The notes beneath the pieces are model-generated. The model worked only from the letters and a program-made list of their open reading frames with translations, ran no database searches and had not been told where the DNA came from. This document shows, in pieces, positions 1,097 to 47,816 of a stretch of 64,000 bases of DNA. The position numbers were made by a program, and so were the translations under genes. Source of the stretch: Candidatus Micrarchaeia archaeon (GTDB taxonomy: Archaea; Micrarchaeota; Micrarchaeia; Micrarchaeales; Micrarchaeaceae). The stretch lies in assembly GCA_049967795.1 (NCBI GenBank), contig JBMFSA010000002.1:7783-71782 (forward strand), read 5' to 3'. Position 1 is the stretch's first letter. The number at the start of each line of letters is the position of its first letter.

Positions 1097-1660
1097 TTAG
1101 TTGTATTTTGATAAACTAAATATATATTCCATCTTGCCTGATTTATTTTCAAATCCTACCTCTTTAAAATTTAATGATTTTATAAGCTTTATAGAGGCCT
1201 CATTAGTTGATAAGATTCTTGCATATATCTTATTTACAAAAAATACTCCAAAGCATATATCTATCAATATAATAACTGCTTCCTTTGCATAGCTTCTTCC
1301 TATATACTTACTATTTATCCAATATCCGATTTCTGCACTCTCTTCATTTAAATTGAATATAACCAGTCCACCTATTAATTTATCTTCATTCTTCAAAAAT
1401 ATACCATAGTGCTTTTCTATTCCAAGTTCACTTCTTTTAATTATTATCTCAGCATTTTCTCTTTTGAAGGGATATGGCAACAAGTTAGAATTAACTCCTT
1501 TAGATACATTTATATCATTTGCACATTCTGTAAGTGCTTCTATATCATTATCATTGAACTCTCTAACATAGACTCTAAAATTAGCTGTTTTTCTATCAAA
1601 TTTTTTTTCAATATTTTTCTTATAATCCTCTACATATTCGCAGTTTTTTGAATCCATCAA
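1097..1660 (-). CDS. GNAT family N-acetyltransferase (RimJ/RimL-like)
   Basis: 187 aa. Typical RimL-like layout (R.....D...L......D..V......P......E......) and GNAT core IGYWINSKYIGRSYAKEA. Confidence 0.7.
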   Translation of the reverse strand: MMDSKNCEYVEDYKKNIEKKFDRKTANFRVYVREFNDNDIEALTECANDINVSKGVNSNLLPYPFKRENAEIIIKRSELGIEKHYGIFLKNEDKLIGGLVIFNLNEESAEIGYWINSKYIGRSYAKEAVIILIDICFGVFFVNKIYARILSTNEASIKLIKSLNFKEVGFENKSGKMEYIFSLSKYN

Positions 1661-1731
1661 TTTACCTTTTAATAATTTAATAATAATATTATTTAGTATA
1701 TATTATCTTTTATCTTTTATTATTTTTGATA

Positions 1732-3879
1732 TTATTTTGGTATTTGTGAAATAATCTTTTTTCCAATCTCATTTCCTAAAAGCTTGTATATAAGCTGCTC
1801 ATTTGCTTTTATATCATTCACTGTTCTTATATTGTTATTATATAATATTCTTGCTCTCACCCTCCCTATTCCCTCAAGCCTTATCAAATCTAGCAGTTCT
1901 TCTTTTACTCCATATTTTAAGCGTATTCTTGTATTGATTAATGCATGTGTGCTCTTTTTGATTAATTTTGCAAGTTCAATAGTTGAATATATAATCCAAT
2001 CCGCGTTCATAATCTTTGTATGAAGCTCTCCGGGTGTTGTATGATACTTTTCAATTAATTTATCCTCTTTTACCTCTTCTATCCAGTCTTTAAGCATTAA
2101 TGTGGTACTTAAAACTTTTAATGGATCATAGTAATTATAATCAACTCTTTCATAATTTTCATAAATATTACTATTAAATTTTTGATAGAGCATATAAATA
2201 TTCTCTGCATCTTCCACTTCTCTGACATACGGCCTCATCTCTATAGTATTTGTGATTATATACAAAATTTCTTCGATGTCTGGTGAATTGTCTATAATAT
2301 TTAATGAATCTATAATCCATTTTGCAGAAAGAGGGTCTATATATAATTCGCTTATTCTTCTACCTAAAGGCGTTGCTTCTAATTTTTCATATTCATTCAT
2401 TTTCACAAATTTAAAATTTATAAGCTCCTTGCAGATTTCATTTGTAATTTTTTTTATTCTTAGGTTATTGCCATATTGTAAGCCATAAAAGGTGCTGTTA
2501 AGAAAAGTTATTATTGAATCTACATCATTAAAAAATTCTTCCGCAATTAATGCCAAAATATGTGTTCTCAATATTGGAAGAACGCCAAGATTAGATTCTA
2601 TAGGCTCTGGATCTGCTAATATATATCTTTTGTATAACTCTTCTTTTTTGTCTAAAGTGTTTGCAATTATCGCCGCTCTTCCTTCAGTATCATATTTTGG
2701 CCTTCCTGCTCTGCCGAAAAGCTGAAGTACTTCATTAACACTCAAATTTTCATTATATACTGAATTATATCTACTTAAATCTCTTATTAATACAGTATGC
2801 GCAGGAAAATTTATTCCATAACCTAATGTTGTAGTAGCACATATAGTTTTTATTAAATTTTTTTTGAAAGCTTCCTCAATTATTATTCTTTGATTGTTAA
2901 GGAGGCCTGCATGATGAAAAGCAACACCATTTTTAACAAGATTTGAGAGTTTAATGCATTGTTCAGTAGGTGTACTTGAAGCTTCTAAAATTTTCTTGCT
3001 TATACCTAACAATTCCTTTTTCTCTTCATCATTGATATAATCCTTCACAATAAATGCTGCTTTCTGTGCGCCTGCTTCTGCATTCTTCTTTGTTGCATAA
3101 AATATTATAATCTGCTTCTTTTTTTCTAGTGTATCCTCTAATATAAGATGTTCGGGTAAATCATTGCTGCTTTTCAATATTATTGATTCTTCTTCATTAT
3201 TTTTATTAATTGTATAAAATCTATTCTTATATATTATGCCTTTTTCTAATCTGATAGGTCTATAATCACTTTTTACAACTTCTGCATCTAACCACTCAGC
3301 AATATCTTCAGGATTTCCTATTGTGGCACTAAGTGCAATTATTTGGATATTTTTATTGCTTTTCAATTTTGTCATTAATATTTCAAGTGTTGGTCCTCTA
3401 GATAAATCATCTAACATATGCACTTCATCAAATACAATACACCTAATATCATCAAGCCATTCAATTTTATGCCTTATCAAGCTGTCAAATTTTTCAGTTG
3501 AAACAAAAAGCAAGTCATAATTTTTTAGCATAGGGTCACTGGAATCAAAGTCTCCTATAGATATAACAGATTTTATATAGGGATAAGCTTCTTTGAATTC
3601 ATTATATTTTTCCATTACTAATGCGCGCATGGGTGCAACATAAACCGCTTTCTTATTTGTTCTTATAATTGTGTTTATGCATGCAAGTTCTGCAATTAAT
3701 GTTTTTCCACTTGCTGTGGGTGATGATATTACAATATTCTTTCTTTCAAATAATCCACACCTAATTGCTTCTGCTTGTGGAGGTGTGAATTTAGTTATGC
3801 CCCTTTGCTTTAATGATTCAATTATTTCATTTGGCGCTTTTCCAATAATATCAGAGATATTCATATCCAAATTTATCAT
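1732..3879 (-). CDS. hel308: Ski2-like DNA helicase Hel308
   Basis: 715 aa. Walker A SPTASGKT, DEVH box, SAT, motif VI QLFGRAGRP, C-terminal HhH-like tail; length and order typical of Hel308/Hjm. Confidence 0.85.
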   Translation of the reverse strand: MINLDMNISDIIGKAPNEIIESLKQRGITKFTPPQAEAIRCGLFERKNIVISSPTASGKTLIAELACINTIIRTNKKAVYVAPMRALVMEKYNEFKEAYPYIKSVISIGDFDSSDPMLKNYDLLFVSTEKFDSLIRHKIEWLDDIRCIVFDEVHMLDDLSRGPTLEILMTKLKSNKNIQIIALSATIGNPEDIAEWLDAEVVKSDYRPIRLEKGIIYKNRFYTINKNNEEESIILKSSNDLPEHLILEDTLEKKKQIIIFYATKKNAEAGAQKAAFIVKDYINDEEKKELLGISKKILEASSTPTEQCIKLSNLVKNGVAFHHAGLLNNQRIIIEEAFKKNLIKTICATTTLGYGINFPAHTVLIRDLSRYNSVYNENLSVNEVLQLFGRAGRPKYDTEGRAAIIANTLDKKEELYKRYILADPEPIESNLGVLPILRTHILALIAEEFFNDVDSIITFLNSTFYGLQYGNNLRIKKITNEICKELINFKFVKMNEYEKLEATPLGRRISELYIDPLSAKWIIDSLNIIDNSPDIEEILYIITNTIEMRPYVREVEDAENIYMLYQKFNSNIYENYERVDYNYYDPLKVLSTTLMLKDWIEEVKEDKLIEKYHTTPGELHTKIMNADWIIYSTIELAKLIKKSTHALINTRIRLKYGVKEELLDLIRLEGIGRVRARILYNNNIRTVNDIKANEQLIYKLLGNEIGKKIISQIPK

Positions 3880-7926: not shown

Positions 7927-8541
7927 ATGAGTGATAATAAGGATGATAATAAAGAGAATAATAAAAATAATAAAAATACAAAATCATTAGATACAGAAGT
8001 AAAAAAAGATGAGCCTAAGGAGAAGACAGAACCACAGGAGAATGCAAATAAAGAAATATCTGAATGTAAAGAGCGTCTGCTTAGGCTTGCCGCAGAGTTT
8101 GATAATTATAAAAAAAGAGTTAGAATAGAGATTGACAGTTCAAAGCAGAATGGAAAGGCGGAATTTATAAAAGAATTACTTCCAATTATTGATGAATTTG
8201 AACTTGCACTCATTGCTACAAAAAAAAGTAGTGATGAAAATATAACAAAAGGAATAGAATTATTATATTCCAATTTTATTGGTATGCTTAAGAAAGAAGG
8301 CCTACAAGAAGTACCCTCTGATGGCGTATATGATCCATATAGACACGAAATAATATTGCTTCAAGAAGATAATTCAAAACCCGATGGCACAATTCTCGAA
8401 GTGACAAAGAAAGGATATATATTTAATGGAATATTATTAAGAGCAGCATCAGTGATTGTTTCAAAAAACAACAACAATAACAATAAAGATACTAATAATA
8501 TAAGCAAAGATAAAGACAGCAACAAAGAAACTAAAAATTAA
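7927..8541 (+). CDS. grpE: Nucleotide exchange factor GrpE
   Basis: 204 aa. RLAAEFDNYKKR signature, long helix plus C-terminal beta domain, low-complexity tails. SD GGTAGGT. Confidence 0.9.
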   Translation: MSDNKDDNKENNKNNKNTKSLDTEVKKDEPKEKTEPQENANKEISECKERLLRLAAEFDNYKKRVRIEIDSSKQNGKAEFIKELLPIIDEFELALIATKKSSDENITKGIELLYSNFIGMLKKEGLQEVPSDGVYDPYRHEIILLQEDNSKPDGTILEVTKKGYIFNGILLRAASVIVSKNNNNNNKDTNNISKDKDSNKETKN

Positions 8542-8711
8542 TTATTAATTTATTATTAATTTAATTAATATTATTTATTTTTATGTGTTTATGATTTAGT
8601 GTTTAAGTTTTGTTAAATATTTCATTTATTATTATTTCAATAATTTAAAATAAAAATAATATTTAAATAAAAAATAAAAAAATAAAATAAAAAATAAAAA
8701 AGAGTGATTGT

Positions 8712-10562
8712 ATGAAAATAATTGGTATAGATTTAGGTACATCAAATTCAGCTGCTGCGGTATTAGAAGGTGGGAGACCAACAATAATACCAAGCAGTGA
8801 AGGTATTACGTTATATGGAAAAGCTTTTCCGAGTTATGTTGCAATAACTAAAGATGGACAGAGGCTTGTAGGAGAACCAGCAAGGAGACAGGCAGTTGCA
8901 AATCCAGAAGGTACAGTAACTGCATTCAAAAGAAAGATGGGCACTGATTACAAATATAATATTTATGGAAAGGAATACACACCTCAAGAGTTATCTGCTA
9001 TGCTATTACAAAAGATTAAAAAGGATGCAGAAGCGTTCCTCGGAGAAGAAGTAAAGAAAGCAGTTATTACAGTGCCCGCATATTTTGATGATAATCAAAG
9101 ACAGGCGACAAAAGATGCAGGTGAGATTGCTGGTTTAGAAGTGGTCAGATTAGTAAATGAGCCTACAGCAGCAGCGCTTGCTTACGGGCTCGATAAATCC
9201 GAGAAAGAGATGAAAATATTAGTGTATGATTTTGGTGGAGGAACTCTTGATGTTACAATCATGGAATTTGGAAAGGGTGTTTTTGAAGTAAAAGCAACAA
9301 GCGGAGATACACAGCTTGGAGGCACGGATATGGATAGAGTAATTGTGGACTTCTTAGTCAATGAGATTAAAACAAAAAATAACATAGATATAACAAAAGA
9401 TATTCAAGCAATGCAGAGGTTGAAGGAGGCTGCAGAAAAAGCTAAAATTGAATTGTCAACAACTTTGACAACAGAGATTAATCTTCCATTCCTTTCAAAA
9501 GATGCATCTAACAATCCTTTTAACTTTACATATACATTGACGAGGGCAAAGCTTGAAAGTTTGGTGTTGCCTATAATAGAGAGGACTGCACATCCTGTAT
9601 CTCAAGCACTCAAAGATGCAAAGCTTGATGCAGCTGATCTTGATAAAATAATATTAGTTGGAGGGCCGACAAGAATGCCTATTGTGCAGAGGTATGTTGA
9701 GCAGCTGTTCGGTAAGAAGGTAGAGAGGGGCGTTGATCCAATGGAATGCGTTGCGCTTGGTGCAGCAATACAGGGAGGAGTGCTAACTGGAGAAGTCAAA
9801 GATATATTGCTACTGGATGTTACTCCATTGTCATTAGGAATTGAAACATTAGGTGGCATTACAACAAAATTAATAGACAGAAATACAACTATACCTGTTA
9901 AGAAATCAGAAATATTTACTACTGCGGCAGACTTCCAGACTGATGTTGAAATACATGTTGTTCAAGGAGAGCGTGCAATGGCAAAGGATAATGTTGATTT
10001 AGGTAGATTTACACTTAAAGGGATACCACCCGCAAGAAGAGGCGTTCCCCAGATTGAAGTAACTTTTGATATTGATTCCAACGGTATACTCCATGTCACT
10101 GCAAAAGATAAAGCAACGGGTAAGGCGCAGAGTATGGATATAGTAGCGCCACACAAAATGAAGAAGGAGGATATCGAAAAGAAGGTAAATGAATCTAAAG
10201 AGTATGAAGAGCAAGATAGGATTTTAAGGGAGCACGTTGAATTAAAGAATACAGCAGAGTCAATAATTTATACAACAGACAAAACTCTTGAAGATTATAA
10301 AGATAAGATACCAAAAGAAGTTGCAGATAAAATAAATAATGCAAAGAATGAACTGCAAGATGCAGTTAATAAAGAGGATTATGACAAAATAAAAGAAAAG
10401 ATGGATGCATTGAAGAATGCGCTTGAAGATGTTGGTGCTAGTATGTATAAGAATGAAGGGCCTACAGCAGGTCCTGGCCCTAACGGCTCTGCTGAAGGCC
10501 AAGGGCCAAACAATGAAGGAGACAGCAGTGCAACAGACGCCGATTTTAAAGTGAAGAAATGA
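8712..10562 (+). CDS. dnaK: Hsp70 chaperone DnaK
   Basis: 616 aa. [27 protein letters not shown] signatures. SD GTGAT. TGA stop. Confidence 0.97.
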
Positions 10563-10699
10563 AGAGAATATAAAAACATAATATAATAATTGGAAAATTA
10601 AGTAGAAAAATACAAAATACAAAATATAAAATATAAAATATAAAAAGCAAAAATAGGAAAATAAATTTATTAATAAAAATAATAGAACTAGGAATTTAG

Positions 10700-11833
10700 A
10701 TGGCAGATGAATATAAAGATTACTATAAAATTCTAGGTGTTAAAAGAGATGCATCTATAGATGAGATTAAAAGAAAGTATAGAGAGCTTGCATTAAAATA
10801 TCATCCCGATAGAAACAAAGACAAGGATTCAGAAGAAAAATTTAAAGAGATAAATGAAGCATATGCAGTATTAAGCGATCCTGAAAAGCGCAAAAATTAT
10901 GATATGTTTGGGCCAGAAGGATTTAATCAGAGATTCAGCAAGGAAGATATATTTAGAGGATTTGATATCAATGATATATTTAATGATCTTGGATTTAATT
11001 TTGATTTAGGTTCAAATGATATTTTTGATTTGTTTGGATTTGGGCAGAGCAATAGGGGCAATCAGTCAAGAAATATGGATGTAGGTGATGATTTATTAAC
11101 ATCAGTTGATGTTAGCTTAGAAGAAGCAGCAAAAGGAACTGAGAAAGAGCTCTCTGTAAGGCATGTGGCTAAATGTGATAGGTGCAATGGCACAGGTGCG
11201 GAGCCAGGATCTAAAATAATAACTTGTGATAAATGTAATGGAACGGGCCAGATAAGATCAACTAGAAGGACTCCTTTTGGTATCATGCAGACAATTACAG
11301 TATGCCCTAAATGTAGAGGTAGTGGAGTAACATTTGAAAAACCTTGTAAAGTTTGCAATGGTACAGGACGAATCTCTAAAACAGATAAGATATCTGTCAA
11401 AATACCTAAAGGTGTAGACACTGGAACCAGACTGCGTGTAAAAGGAATGGGTGATTATGGTAAAGATAGGGTTGGGGATTTATACGTTGATATAAATGTA
11501 TTAAAGAACAGAATATTCAAAAGAGAAAATGATGACCTTTATATAGATGTTCATATTCCGTTCTATACAGCAATACTTGGCGGGGATATTGAAGTTGATA
11601 CTCTGGATGGAAAAGAAACAGTATCTGTAAAAGCAGGCACGCAGACTGGCGATACATTAGTATTAAAAAATAAAGGAATGCCTCATTTCAATAGTAATTA
11701 TATTGGAAATGAAATTGTTAAATTTATCGTTGATATGCCAAAACACCTGTCAAATGAGCAGAGAGCGCTTATTGAGAAGTTTAGAGAGCTTGATTCTGGG
11801 AAGAAAAAAGGACTCTTCGGGTTTGTACTATAA
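10700..11833 (+). CDS. dnaJ: Hsp40 co-chaperone DnaJ (type I)
   Basis: 377 aa. J domain with HPD, G/F-rich linker, four CxxCxGxG zinc-finger repeats. Confidence 0.95.
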
Positions 11834-21407: not shown

Positions 21408-21460
21408 AAATATAAATAAAATATTAAACTTTAAAAAATATATGTTAACATTTAAAATAA

Positions 21461-21556
21461 GCCCGGAGAGGGGATTGAACCCTCGACCTCCTGTTTTCCT
21501 GTTCTTTTAAAAGCTTCTCTTACAAGACAGGCGCTCTGCCACTGAGCTACCCGGGC
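21461..21556 (-). tRNA. tRNA-Thr(UGU) with a 25-nt intron at position 37/38
   Basis: Reverse complement folds as GCCCGGG-TA-GCTC-AGTGGCA-GAGC-G-CCTGT-CTTGTA[25-nt intron]A-ACAGG-AGGTC-GAGGG-TTCAATC-CCCTC-TCCGGGC. Confidence 0.8.
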
Positions 21557-38533: not shown

Positions 38534-38635
38534 TGCCGCAAGCAGGATTTGAACCTGCGACCTTCCGGTTTCAAATAAATTATACTGTAATAAATTTAAC
38601 TTCAGCCGGACGCTCTCCCACTGAGCTATTGCGGC
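38534..38635 (-). tRNA. tRNA-Phe(GAA) with a 30-nt intron at position 37/38
   Basis: Reverse complement folds as GCCGCAA-TA-GCTC-AGTGGGA-GAGC-G-TCCGG-CTGAAG[30-nt AT-rich intron]A-CCGGA-AGGTC-GCAGG-TTCAAAT-CCTGC-TTGCGGC-A. Confidence 0.85.
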
Positions 38636-45026: not shown

Positions 45027-45680
45027 ATGATTAAATATTGTCCATTATGTAATGCTTCAAGCAGCGAAGTGCGATTTGTCGGCGAGTTTTGTGAAAACTG
45101 CTTGATTAAAGAAGCAAAAAAGAAAATTAAAGAAGATATAAAAATTGAGTTTTGTAAGCGTTGCGATAGGCTCAAGGTGAAAGGCACCTATATAGAAAAG
45201 AATGAAAAAAATTTGGGCGCAGCAATGCTTGAAGCATTAGATGATAAGAAATGTATGAATGTTGTTGTAAATTCATTAAACAAAGATGAAGTAAACTTGA
45301 ATATTAAATATATGATAAATGACGATTATATAAAATTTGACAAAATTGTAAGGTATAAAATGATCCATCAGATATGTCAGGATTGCTATCGAAGAAGCTC
45401 TGGCTATTATGAAGCAATTATACAGCTTCGTGGTGATGAACAGCGCATTGATAAAATAATCGAAAAAATAGAGACTTTTCTATCTAACAACAATGCCTTT
45501 GTATCAAAAATAGAAAAATTAGAAAATAATGGTATTGATCTCTATATAAGCGATAAAACTTTAATAAAAACTTTCTTCATAGCACACAAATTAAAGCCTA
45601 AAGCATCATATACTCTTTACAGTATAAAGAATGGCAAAAAAGTTTATAGAAATACATATTTTTTAAAATTTGAAAAATAA
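45027..45680 (+). CDS. NMD3-family (ribosome biogenesis/export factor-like) zinc-ribbon protein
   Basis: 217 aa. CPLC...CENC...CKRC...CQDC followed by YYEAIIQLRG, the NMD3 hallmark (..A.VQ.R). SD GTGAT. Confidence 0.7.
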   Translation: MIKYCPLCNASSSEVRFVGEFCENCLIKEAKKKIKEDIKIEFCKRCDRLKVKGTYIEKNEKNLGAAMLEALDDKKCMNVVVNSLNKDEVNLNIKYMINDDYIKFDKIVRYKMIHQICQDCYRRSSGYYEAIIQLRGDEQRIDKIIEKIETFLSNNNAFVSKIEKLENNGIDLYISDKTLIKTFFIAHKLKPKASYTLYSIKNGKKVYRNTYFLKFEK

Positions 45681-45741: not shown

Positions 45742-46224
45742 CTATACTGGTTTTATATAAACACAAGGTAAAGTAGGATTAGAAGGGCAAGAATTTTCTG
45801 CACTTATATTGATAAGATAAACACCTTCTGAAGTAAGTCCAGTCAGTGAGCCACTTACATTTACAGGAGTATATGCACTTACATAACTAGGGCCTGCATT
45901 TGTATCAACAACAAACGTTATTATATGGCCTATTGTTCCTGTTTGAGTCCCTATTGATGCACTTTTTATGTTTTGCGGTATCTGAATAAGTACCAACTGT
46001 TTTGCAGGATATCCTTGCAAACCAACAGATGTTGCAACACTTGCTAATTTTTCAGCTGCAGCATCCGCCTCTGATGATGATAGTGTTGAAGCTGAATTTG
46101 AGATTTGTATAAATGCAATTGATATTATAGGTAAAAGAATTATCAATGCAAATGTGAGTGTTATCAATAGCTCTAAGCTAGACTGTGCTTTTCTGTGTTT
46201 ATTTATAATTTTCCTATTCCTCAT
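45742..46224 (-). CDS. Class III signal peptide (archaeal type IV pilin-like) protein
   Basis: Basic N-terminus then KAQSSLELLITLTFALIILLPII (prepilin-like cleavage context with Q at +1 and E at +5). Start set at the ATG at 46222-46224, preceded by SD GAGGAGGAA. It lies 1 nt after the stop of the upstream CBS gene. Confidence 0.7.
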   Translation of the reverse strand: MRNRKIINKHRKAQSSLELLITLTFALIILLPIISIAFIQISNSASTLSSSEADAAAEKLASVATSVGLQGYPAKQLVLIQIPQNIKSASIGTQTGTIGHIITFVVDTNAGPSYVSAYTPVNVSGSLTGLTSEGVYLINISAENSCPSNPTLPCVYIKPV

Positions 46225-46225
46225 T

Positions 46226-47383
46226 TTATTCCTCCTCATGCTGATTTGCCATCTCTTTACTCTTTTTTCTATTGATATCTCTTTTCTTTAATATCTCTTT
46301 CCATAGAACATCTAATAAACTATCAAAGGTTCTATCAAAAAGGTAGCCACTAACATTCATTGTTATAATTCCTTCTTTTCTCAATTCTAATCTAGCATGT
46401 ATTTCATAAGTTTTTGTTTTTAATTTCTTAATATGTATGCTTATAAATTCTACATTTTCGCCTCTTAATTTTTCAACTTTCTCTATAAAGTTCTTCAATT
46501 CCTCTCTTATTTCATCTTCAAATTGATAAGTATCTTCATTCAATCCACTGATAAATATTTTGTTTCTAAATGCTGTACTTCTTGAAAGCATACTTACTAT
46601 TGCATCAAGTTCTGTTAATATACCTACGGGTTTATTTTTATCAACAACAACTATCGAAGAAATATCATTCTCTATTAATTTTCTTACTGCTTCATCTAAA
46701 TTTGTACTAATATTTACTGTTATTAAATTAGGCTCTATAAAATCTTTAACTTTAAAGTTTGACAGATTAAAAACTTTTGTTTTAAATTCCGGCAGCCTTT
46801 CTTCGGGTTTGATAAATTGTTTTATTAAACTATAGCTAGTTAAAATGCCTTCTATATTGCCCCTATTATCTACAACAATTAATCTATTTATTCTATTAGT
46901 TTTCATTAATTTGATTGCTTGGAGTATATTAGCATCTTTTTCTATTGTTATTATAGGAGAAGTCATCGTATTTTCAACTTTTAATTCATTAAACTTTTTT
47001 AATGACAATAATATTTTTAATAATGTGCTTCTTTTTAAGATTCCTCTAATTTTATCATTTTTTATGTACGGCAGAGCTTTTACTCTTGCTTTATAAAAAT
47101 AATATGCGACGTCTTCTATAGTTGTTGCATCTGTTATTTTAGGCACTCTAATCAATAAATTTTCTAAAGATTCCTTTTTATCTATTTTCAAACTGTCTTG
47201 TATATGTTTATATAATGCTCTTGAATCGACTATACCTACATATTTGTTATCTTTTTTAACAATTATTGCATCATATTTTTCAATATCTTGCAATACTTTT
47301 GTTATTGGGGTTTTAATATTATAAAATTCTGTTTTTGATATCAACTCCTCAGGTACATTATATTTATTTATAAGATCATCCAT
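46226..47383 (-). CDS. Four-CBS-domain protein with a C-terminal RaiA/HPF-like domain (candidate ribosome hibernation factor)
   Basis: 385 aa. Four CBS motifs in residues about 20-265. Residues about 275-372 show a beta-alpha-beta-beta-beta-alpha pattern with ...FDSLLDVLWKEILKKRD, resembling the HPF signature ...AIDGLIDKLARQLTKHKD. SD AGGTGA. Confidence 0.6.
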   Translation of the reverse strand: MDDLINKYNVPEELISKTEFYNIKTPITKVLQDIEKYDAIIVKKDNKYVGIVDSRALYKHIQDSLKIDKKESLENLLIRVPKITDATTIEDVAYYFYKARVKALPYIKNDKIRGILKRSTLLKILLSLKKFNELKVENTMTSPIITIEKDANILQAIKLMKTNRINRLIVVDNRGNIEGILTSYSLIKQFIKPEERLPEFKTKVFNLSNFKVKDFIEPNLITVNISTNLDEAVRKLIENDISSIVVVDKNKPVGILTELDAIVSMLSRSTAFRNKIFISGLNEDTYQFEDEIREELKNFIEKVEKLRGENVEFISIHIKKLKTKTYEIHARLELRKEGIITMNVSGYLFDRTFDSLLDVLWKEILKKRDINRKKSKEMANQHEEE

Positions 47384-47569
47384 ATTTTCACCTAATTATT
47401 TTTGTTTATCATATTATACATGATATCTTTATAAAATTATTGCTATAGCGCAGAACAATATAATATAATTCAATTATAAAAATAAGAAAAGTAAATATAA
47501 TGAGGTTGAATAGAAAAATATTTATATGATTCGGTGTATAAAAATTTAACATATATATTTGGTGGTAAA

Positions 47570-47701
47570 ATGAAAATGCCAATATACGAAATAAGTCCAA
47601 AAGCTCCAAAGAAACCAGAGGACGAAGAGGATGAAGAAGAGGAAGAGGATGAAGAAGACGATGACTACCCTCCTGAAGAAGATGAAGAGGATGAAGAATA
47701 A
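47570..47701 (+). CDS. Unannotated 43-codon hyper-acidic small protein
   Basis: MKMPIYEISPKAPKKPEDEEDEEEEEDEEDDDYPPEEDEEDEE. SD GGTGGT 3 nt before the ATG. GC island in an AT-rich spacer. T-rich tract downstream. Below the ORF-track length cutoff. Confidence 0.5.
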   Translation: MKMPIYEISPKAPKKPEDEEDEEEEEDEEDDDYPPEEDEEDEE

Positions 47702-47766
47702 AGTATATAAATAAATATAATAATATAACACGTCTTATATCTTCGTAAATTGTTGTGTGCAATTTA

Positions 47767-47816
47767 TTTTTTTTGTTCATTTTTATAAGTTATTTTTGTT
47801 TTTATTTTGTTTTTTG
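47767..47816 (+). terminator. T-rich block (T8, T5, T5, T5, T4, T6 runs) downstream of the acidic sORF
   Basis: TTTTTTTTGTTCATTTTTATAAGTTATTTTTGTTTTTATTTTGTTTTTTG, read directly. Oligo-T tracts are the usual archaeal intrinsic termination signal. Confidence 0.35.

Follow-up and report, generated by a model that had tools for sequence, protein, structure and literature searches.

A ribosome hibernation factor in which four CBS domains are fused to an HPF/RaiA-like domain has been described independently as HibA (PMC13324472) and as AHA, for AMPKgamma-HPF from Archaea (PMC12934967); the CBS4-HPF fusion was published in a bioRxiv preprint of October 2025, in Nature Communications in April 2026 and, for AHA, in a preprint of February 2026. 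Here we compare these proteins with the product of a gene, called hibA below, on a 64,000-nt stretch of a Candidatus Micrarchaeia archaeon (contig JBMFSA010000002.1, positions 7,783 to 71,782). This whole stretch is referred to as the window, and all coordinates are given in its numbering. Judged from its sequence relationships and predicted fold, the gene is most probably the Micrarchaeota (DPANN) orthologue of HibA, alias AHA. An earlier note, made from the sequence alone, had suggested that the gene might join in one polypeptide an HPF-like and a CBS-domain factor described as separate proteins. Separate factors do exist (Dri, SriA-D, ARC and standalone HPF), but the fusion is already known from HibA/AHA and is not new.

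HibA has been studied in Pyrococcus abyssi (PAB0961) and Thermococcus barophilus (TERMP_00697) by cryo-electron microscopy, an in vitro translation assay, isothermal titration calorimetry and gene deletion (PMC13324472), and AHA in Haloferax volcanii (HVO_2384) by cryo-electron microscopy with two bound molecules of adenosine monophosphate (AMP) and by gene deletion (PMC12934967). In HibA the four CBS domains (residues 1-269) are joined to an HPF/RaiA-like domain of β-α-β-β-β-α topology (residues 270-392) (PMC13324472). The HPF-like domain lies in the mRNA/tRNA channel of the 30S subunit, where it contacts h44, h28, h24, h23, uS12, uS7, uS11 and others, blocking the A and P sites, and the CBS module is found on the 50S subunit in up to three positions, at the peptidyl-transferase centre (PTC), at uL5 and at the L1 stalk, with a long CBS3 loop that wraps a universally conserved PTC adenine (PMC13324472, PMC12934967); in AHA, too, the HPF domain is in the A/P site of the 30S subunit and the CBS tetrad reaches the PTC through the CBS3 loop. 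Deletion of the HibA gene leads to smaller 70S pools and a slower recovery from stationary phase (PMC13324472), and deletion of AHA in H. volcanii to a lower viability (PMC12934967). At the CBS3/CBS4 junction the CBS module of P. abyssi HibA prefers AMP (dissociation constant 12 µM) to adenosine diphosphate and adenosine triphosphate (ATP), in that order (PMC13324472), and AHA holds its two AMP at the same junction (PMC12934967).

The view that HPF/RaiA proteins fall outside the standard archaeal gene set, held in the earlier note, is outdated, since 47% of archaeal genomes, in all major lineages, are reported to have HibA, and 8% to have standalone HPF/RaiA-like proteins. The AHA survey counted 2,723 species in 17 phyla and had A0A7D6BN20, a Micrarchaeota protein of Fermentimicrarchaeum limneticum, among its search seeds (PMC12934967). 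The source data of PMC13324472 list genomes but do not give the presence or absence of HibA in each of them. Other ribosome-binding CBS tetrads, Dri of Pyrobaculum, SriA-D of Methanosarcina and ARC-A/ARC-P of Methanolobus, have no HPF domain; Dri is composed of two CBS tetrads, and Sri and ARC are separate proteins. The phyletic pattern of these CBS-only factors is reported to be largely exclusive with that of HibA/AHA (PMC12934967). The HPF/RaiA/YfiA/pY proteins of bacteria and plastids (PF02482) are either standalone (about 95-113 residues) or, as long HPF, carry a C-terminal dimerisation domain, and none has an N-terminal CBS tetrad. AMPK gamma of eukaryotes is a CBS tetrad with adenine nucleotide sites at CBS3/CBS4, but serves a kinase as its regulatory subunit and has no ribosome-binding module.

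The gene product and its relationship to HibA

The coding sequence of hibA lies at 46226..47383 on the minus strand and specifies 385 residues between an ATG start and a TAA stop, as the earlier note had it. A putative Shine-Dalgarno-like AGGTGA (47388..47393, minus strand), picked out by inspection, is placed 4 nt 5' of the ATG. NCBI carries an identical protein, annotated as 'MAG: CBS domain-containing protein [Candidatus Micrarchaeia archaeon]', where MAG stands for metagenome-assembled genome. The G+C content of the window is 27.6%, and its source, an uncultured, low-GC DPANN archaeon, is unlike the hosts in which HibA has been studied.

Residues 1-267 (46583..47383, minus strand) form a module of four CBS domains, that is two Bateman modules, as had been read from the sequence by eye. 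PF00571 is matched in four stretches (E 2e-33), and a full-length AlphaFold2 model, built on an alignment of 54 sequences, has four CBS units (mean predicted local distance difference test score, pLDDT, 85.3; predicted template modelling score 0.82). These 54 homologues, as we call them throughout, are the window protein and 53 other full-length proteins of 373-396 residues and 35-73% identity to it; those with a taxon name are all Micrarchaeota-type or Marsarchaeota MAG proteins. The protein is conserved across Micrarchaeota. The best Foldseek matches of the full-length model are CBS tetrads, namely SSO3205 with AMP (3ddj), SriA/B, MJ1225, AMPK gamma and Dri. HibA entries were not among these matches, probably because the library ends at 2026-04-08. 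The CBS-only factors are structurally like the CBS module of the window protein (E 1e-14 to 2e-17), and AMPK gamma has the same tetrad fold with 14-18% identity over the Foldseek alignments. The presence of an HPF-like domain is the reason why we do not class the window protein as a CBS-only factor. Since the CBS tetrads dominated this search, the C-terminal domain was modelled and searched separately.

The best sequence match of the window protein in the PDB is chain 9sr9_H (E 1.2e-25, residues 17-330, 93.8 bits), a chain of 392 residues that was deposited under the name 'Dehydrogenase'; the entries 9SR9-9SRF and 9T7H are P. abyssi ribosome complexes with HibA (PMC13324472). The homology to HibA runs from end to end: a profile of the full-length family (A1, positions 16-369) aligned with residues 15-378 of 9sr9_H in a single stretch through both modules (E 1.9e-40), after which came SriC/D and other CBS tetrads with E values of about 1e-33 and above. 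HibA outscored Sri, Dri and SSO3205 both with the window protein (93.8 vs at most 68 bits) and with profile A1 (142 vs 120 bits). It is also the best solved relative of two distant full-length representatives that were found with profile A2, which was built from the C-terminal domain (window residues 268-385 and the corresponding part of the homologues). Among the top three matches of the full-length profile there was also 9l96_a (likewise 9l98, 9l9c and 9l9v; E 1e-33), a 'CBS domain-containing protein' of 406 residues that may be another ribosome-bound CBS factor; we found no paper that mentions entry 9L96.

In architecture and size the window protein is the same as HibA, with its CBS module at residues 1-267 and its HPF/RaiA-like domain at 275-384, and both proteins have an extended loop after CBS3 and a canonical nucleotide motif in CBS4. 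The two have little sequence similarity, and what there is comes from the CBS module. AHA, as described in PMC12934967, has the same two-module architecture. We place the window protein in the HibA family because its best relative, its full-length alignment and its architecture all match HibA.

The C-terminal domain

The HPF/RaiA-like domain covers residues 275-384 (46232..46561, minus strand). In the AlphaFold2 model it is composed of β1 (276-279), α1 (286-304), β2 (311-322), β3 (325-334), β4 (338-346) and a long α2 (349-384), which is the β-α-β-β-β-α topology that the earlier note had read by eye from residues 275-372 (nt 46268-46561); the peptide segments that it quoted are present in the translation. 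Across the whole homologue set the C-terminal 118 residues are conserved. When the homologues were scanned singly, 28 of the 54 matched PF02482 (Ribosomal_S30AE) at E<=0.01, the best at 3.9e-7, and the same family is found in the precomputed annotation of homologues P0026, P0027 and P0033. A search of the PDB with profile A2 (hmmsearch) gave E. coli HPF as its top three matches (E 2e-4, 1.4e-3 and 7e-3), with V. cholerae YhbH, Borrelia HPF and Listeria HPF just under the threshold, and hhalign aligned profile A2 with E. coli HPF over 77 columns at E 3e-6 and a probability of 88%. Both programs reproduced the register against E. coli HPF that had been proposed by eye, with EIREELKNFIEKVEKL facing EITEALREFVTAKFAKLEQY and DSLLDVLWKEILKKRD facing DGLIDKLARQLTKHKD.

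The structural comparison gave the same picture. With a separate AlphaFold model of the C-terminal domain (pLDDT 86.1), ranks 1-12 of the Foldseek search against the PDB are all HPF/RaiA/pY/PSRP1 hibernation factors (E 1e-4 to 2.5e-2; template modelling scores 0.47-0.66, normalised by query length). They include 8fmw_W, 5x8r_y, 5mmj_y, 6qbz, 8uu7_w and 7m4z_v, and several of the 12 structures were solved on bacterial or chloroplast ribosomes. The domain thus has the fold of bacterial and plastid HPF and is homologous to it at the profile level, and its RaiA/HPF-like identity, first suggested by eye, has been borne out. It differs from bacterial HPF in a β2-β3 turn that is 3 residues longer and in a much longer α2 with a basic-then-acidic tail. 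A terminal helix longer than that of E. coli HPF is found both in AHA and in the model of the window protein (349-384). The β2-β3 hairpin of the P. abyssi HibA domain is 5 residues longer than that of the window protein.

An exhaustive HMMER search with profile A2 alone found 259 cluster representatives at E<=0.001. Among the 149 of them that were retrieved, 99 are proteins of 340-420 residues, the aligned part lying near residues 255-380 in those listed, and 15 are standalone proteins of 100-139 residues. Several standalone relatives exceed the PF02482 threshold (P0190 with 35.0 bits, P0202 with 31.3 and P0143 with 29.1).

The CBS3 loop, the putative nucleotide sites and a possible mechanism

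The extended loop after CBS3 (FIKPEERLPEFKTKVFNLSNFKV, residues 189-211; 46751..46819, minus strand) is the counterpart of what is called the 'PTC loop' in HibA and 'loop 3' in AHA. It has about 23 residues, aligns with residues about 190-212 of P. abyssi HibA, and is modelled with low confidence (pLDDT <50 at 194-203). Within it E195, R196 and P198 (E-R-x-P) are nearly invariant in the 54 homologues. By analogy with the published structures (PMC13324472, PMC12934967), the loop of the window protein would act at the PTC.

In CBS4 the motif G-I-L-T-E-L-D ends in Asp260 (codon 46604..46606, minus strand), the canonical ribose-binding Asp, which is invariant in 54 of 54 homologues. In the CBS3 motif (G-I-L-T-S-Y-S) the corresponding position, the last of G-h-h-T-x-x-D, is occupied by Ser185 (46829..46831, minus strand), and the window protein is the only one with Ser among the homologues, the other 53 having Asp, as does P. 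abyssi HibA (GLVTLHD). The codon is AGT and therefore two base substitutions away from GAY. AHA has its two AMP at the equivalents of sites 3 and 4 of AMPK gamma, whereas the window protein has the canonical Asp in CBS4 only. A single canonical nucleotide motif is common in the wider family (36 of the 99 full-length representatives), and in that light Ser185 would point to one nucleotide site rather than two, and not to a loss of function. In a more speculative reading, HibA of this lineage would have lost the CBS3 ribose-binding Asp (D185S) and would sense nucleotides through one site only.

By analogy with HibA and AHA we infer that the window protein itself binds ribosomes, silences translation and binds nucleotides. 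Its C-terminal domain would be located in the decoding centre and mRNA channel of the 30S subunit, excluding mRNA as well as A- and P-site tRNA, and its N-terminal CBS tetrad would dock on the 50S subunit with the extended CBS3 loop reaching the PTC. With one module on each subunit, a single polypeptide would bridge both, hold the inactive 70S ribosome together and protect it from degradation. The cleft between CBS3 and CBS4 would bind adenine nucleotides, which is a possible link to the energy status of the cell. The function that the earlier note had proposed, that of a nucleotide-sensing ribosome hibernation factor, has been demonstrated in experiments on the homologues HibA (PMC13324472) and AHA (PMC12934967).

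Assignment to HibA and alternative explanations

Several observations weigh against the assignment. The window protein alone has no match to PF02482 at E<=10 in a Pfam hmmscan, and thus does not reach the gathering threshold of 23.7 bits. What searches of the protein and its C-terminus against Pfam and NCBIfam gave besides CBS was noise, for example UCR_UQCRX_QCR9 and Thioredoxin_8; with the C-terminus as query, phmmer found no HPF in the PDB but chance matches only (E>0.1). The comparison with PF02482 that the earlier note had proposed thus failed for the window protein itself, but succeeded for 28 of the homologues. Profile A2 did not return the C-terminal domain of P. abyssi HibA from the PDB at E<=10, the direct hhalign comparison of the two gave only E 0.0088 and a probability of 4.6%, and, on these comparisons, the C-terminal domain alone is no proof of orthology to HibA. 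Ribosome binding has been demonstrated only with HibA of P. abyssi and AHA of H. volcanii, the source organism is an uncultured DPANN MAG, and of the two nucleotide sites that AHA has, Ser185 may weaken one. Finally, neither AMP nor ATP altered the ribosome binding of P. abyssi HibA in vitro (PMC13324472), which leaves gating by energy charge unproven even for the type member.

What ties the protein to HibA is therefore its CBS module, the collinear full-length alignment and the architecture that the two have in common. The similarity of the C-terminal domain to HPF is, by the profile comparisons, beyond chance, even if it is undetectable from the single window sequence. Because the window protein misses PF02482 while homologues and standalone relatives match it, we regard the protein as a remote, superfamily-level member of HPF/RaiA, and not as a Pfam-level member by its own score.

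The poor score between the two archaeal C-terminal domains could also mean that a CBS tetrad (SriA/CM-5-like) and a bacterial-type HPF were fused independently in this lineage, giving a protein that acts like HibA without being its orthologue. The Micrarchaeota profile A2 is indeed nearer to E. coli HPF than to the C-terminus of P. abyssi HibA, and it is in DPANN and Nitrososphaerales that most standalone HPF/RaiA-like proteins are reported. Against this, the archaeal HPF domain is short and fast-evolving, which accounts for the weak C-terminal score (PMC13324472, PMC12934967), and the best solved relative of the CBS module is HibA, above Sri, Dri and SSO3205. In the published phylogeny HibA-CM is monophyletic, which argues for a single fusion with the standalone HPF proteins arising by loss (PMC13324472). 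Domain order, lengths and the CBS3 loop are the same as in HibA, and because the CBS module, the domain order and this loop tie the window protein to HibA, we consider an independent, convergent fusion to be distinctly unlikely.

It is even less probable that the protein is a CBS-tetrad regulator that acts mainly off the ribosome, for example as an HhpR-like transcription regulator or as a nucleotide-gated partner in replication or recombination, and we give this very little credence. Some sources label the homologues 'predicted transcriptional regulator', a HibA pull-down in Thermococcales contained replication and recombination proteins (PMC13324472), and there is a weak NCBIfam match to HhpR (NF053603). 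The match, however, scores 48.9 bits where the cut-off is 520 and is limited to the CBS repeats, and we have rejected membership in HhpR, and with it that of a transcription regulator, on these grounds; HhpR is moreover the CM-3 family, which has no HPF domain, and for a conserved domain of the HPF fold no role besides 30S binding is known. That the C-terminal segment would be an ACT/ferredoxin-like (β-α-β-β-α-β) or other unrelated small domain with an HPF likeness by eye only, as the missing Pfam and PDB matches of the single window sequence to HPF might suggest, is scarcely credible and was rejected, since the AlphaFold2 topology is β-α-β-β-β-α, the first 12 Foldseek ranks belong to the HPF family and the 50 matches listed include no ACT protein, and the profiles match PF02482 and E. 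coli HPF.

Orthology to HibA is thus the explanation that we prefer. It allows a gene of a Micrarchaeota MAG whose annotation says no more than 'CBS domain-containing protein' to be named as a HibA/AHA-type hibernation factor, and it indicates that even strongly reduced DPANN genomes retain the full two-module factor, beside genes of translation and ribosome biogenesis (NMD3, S6e and eIF2-gamma). The Micrarchaeota HPF domains are, in terms of profile scores, unusually close to bacterial HPF. The origin of archaeal HPF is contested, with the last universal common ancestor (PMC12934967) and an early transfer from Bacteria (PMC13324472) as the two proposals, and these domains may serve as slowly evolving intermediates in that debate. 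To a specialist who is aware of the papers from 2025-2026, the overall picture is unchanged.

Neighbouring genes

The order of genes around hibA is eIF2-gamma, S6e, CDC48, an acidic open reading frame (ORF) of 43 residues, hibA, a pilin-like gene, NMD3, SecD, SecF, Hjc and a helicase, and it is syntenic with that of a 73%-identical relative. The pilin-like gene lies directly 3' of hibA on the minus strand and encodes 160 residues from its second ATG (45742..46224), or 165 residues if translation starts at the ATG at 46239. Its product has a class III (type IV pilin-like) signal peptide, K/R-x|QSS[LF]ELLIT, and no Pfam match. The second ATG is 1 nt past the stop codon of hibA and has a GGAGG 6 nt on its 5' side, and it is this close junction of start, GGAGG and stop codon that suggests co-transcription of the two genes.

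Of nine related loci, eight have an orthologous ORF of about 151-165 residues directly after hibA on the same strand, where it overlaps hibA or begins a few nt from its stop codon. These are L001-L003 and L005-L009, of which seven were retrieved separately and L001-L003 are copies of one relative. The copies lie at 7148-7636 in L002, 6148-6639 in L005, 6131-6586 in L006, 5134-5616 in L007, 5139-5612 in L008 and 5139-5606 in L009. In the ninth locus, L004, the orthologue (1585-2055, minus strand) is found about 3 kb upstream, and a different pilin-like gene follows hibA. The pilin-like orthologues are 51-82% identical to the window copy and have 2 invariant Cys (alignment A4), and with only 35-73% identity of HibA across the same lineages, the pilin-like protein is the more conserved of the two. 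The pilin-like protein is not known to take part in hibernation. If the pair were functional and not just a matter of inherited gene order, which we hold to be rather unlikely, ribosome hibernation in these host-dependent DPANN cells would be under joint control with a structure of the cell surface or of host attachment.

The NMD3-family gene, a homologue of a large-subunit biogenesis factor, is located at 45027..45680 on the plus strand, within a few kb of hibA. In L001-L005, L007 and L009, too, it is found near hibA; the stretches examined of L006 and L008 lack it. The proximity of NMD3, S6e and eIF2-gamma to hibA may be plain synteny. The 43-residue ORF between hibA and cdc48 (MKMPIYEISPKAPKKPEDEEDEEEEEDEEDDDYPPEEDEEDEE; 47570..47701, plus strand) has a short basic head followed by an extremely acidic remainder. 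The ORF has no Pfam match, but the 73%-identical relative also has a called gene of 43 residues in this place (L001/L002, 5606-5737). An ORF of 123 residues 5' of hibA (47409..47780, minus strand) is probably spurious, being of low complexity and antisense to the small acidic ORF.

Further away, a GrpE-DnaK-DnaJ operon (7927..11833, plus strand) coincides with the G+C-richest block of the window (33.6% vs about 27%); in L004 about 1 kb separates hibA from the same three genes on its downstream side, with one pilin-like gene between. Two tRNA genes that ARAGORN missed were found by Rfam, at 21460..21556 (97 nt) and 38534..38635 (102 nt), both on the minus strand, and their lengths are consistent with intron-containing archaeal tRNA genes.

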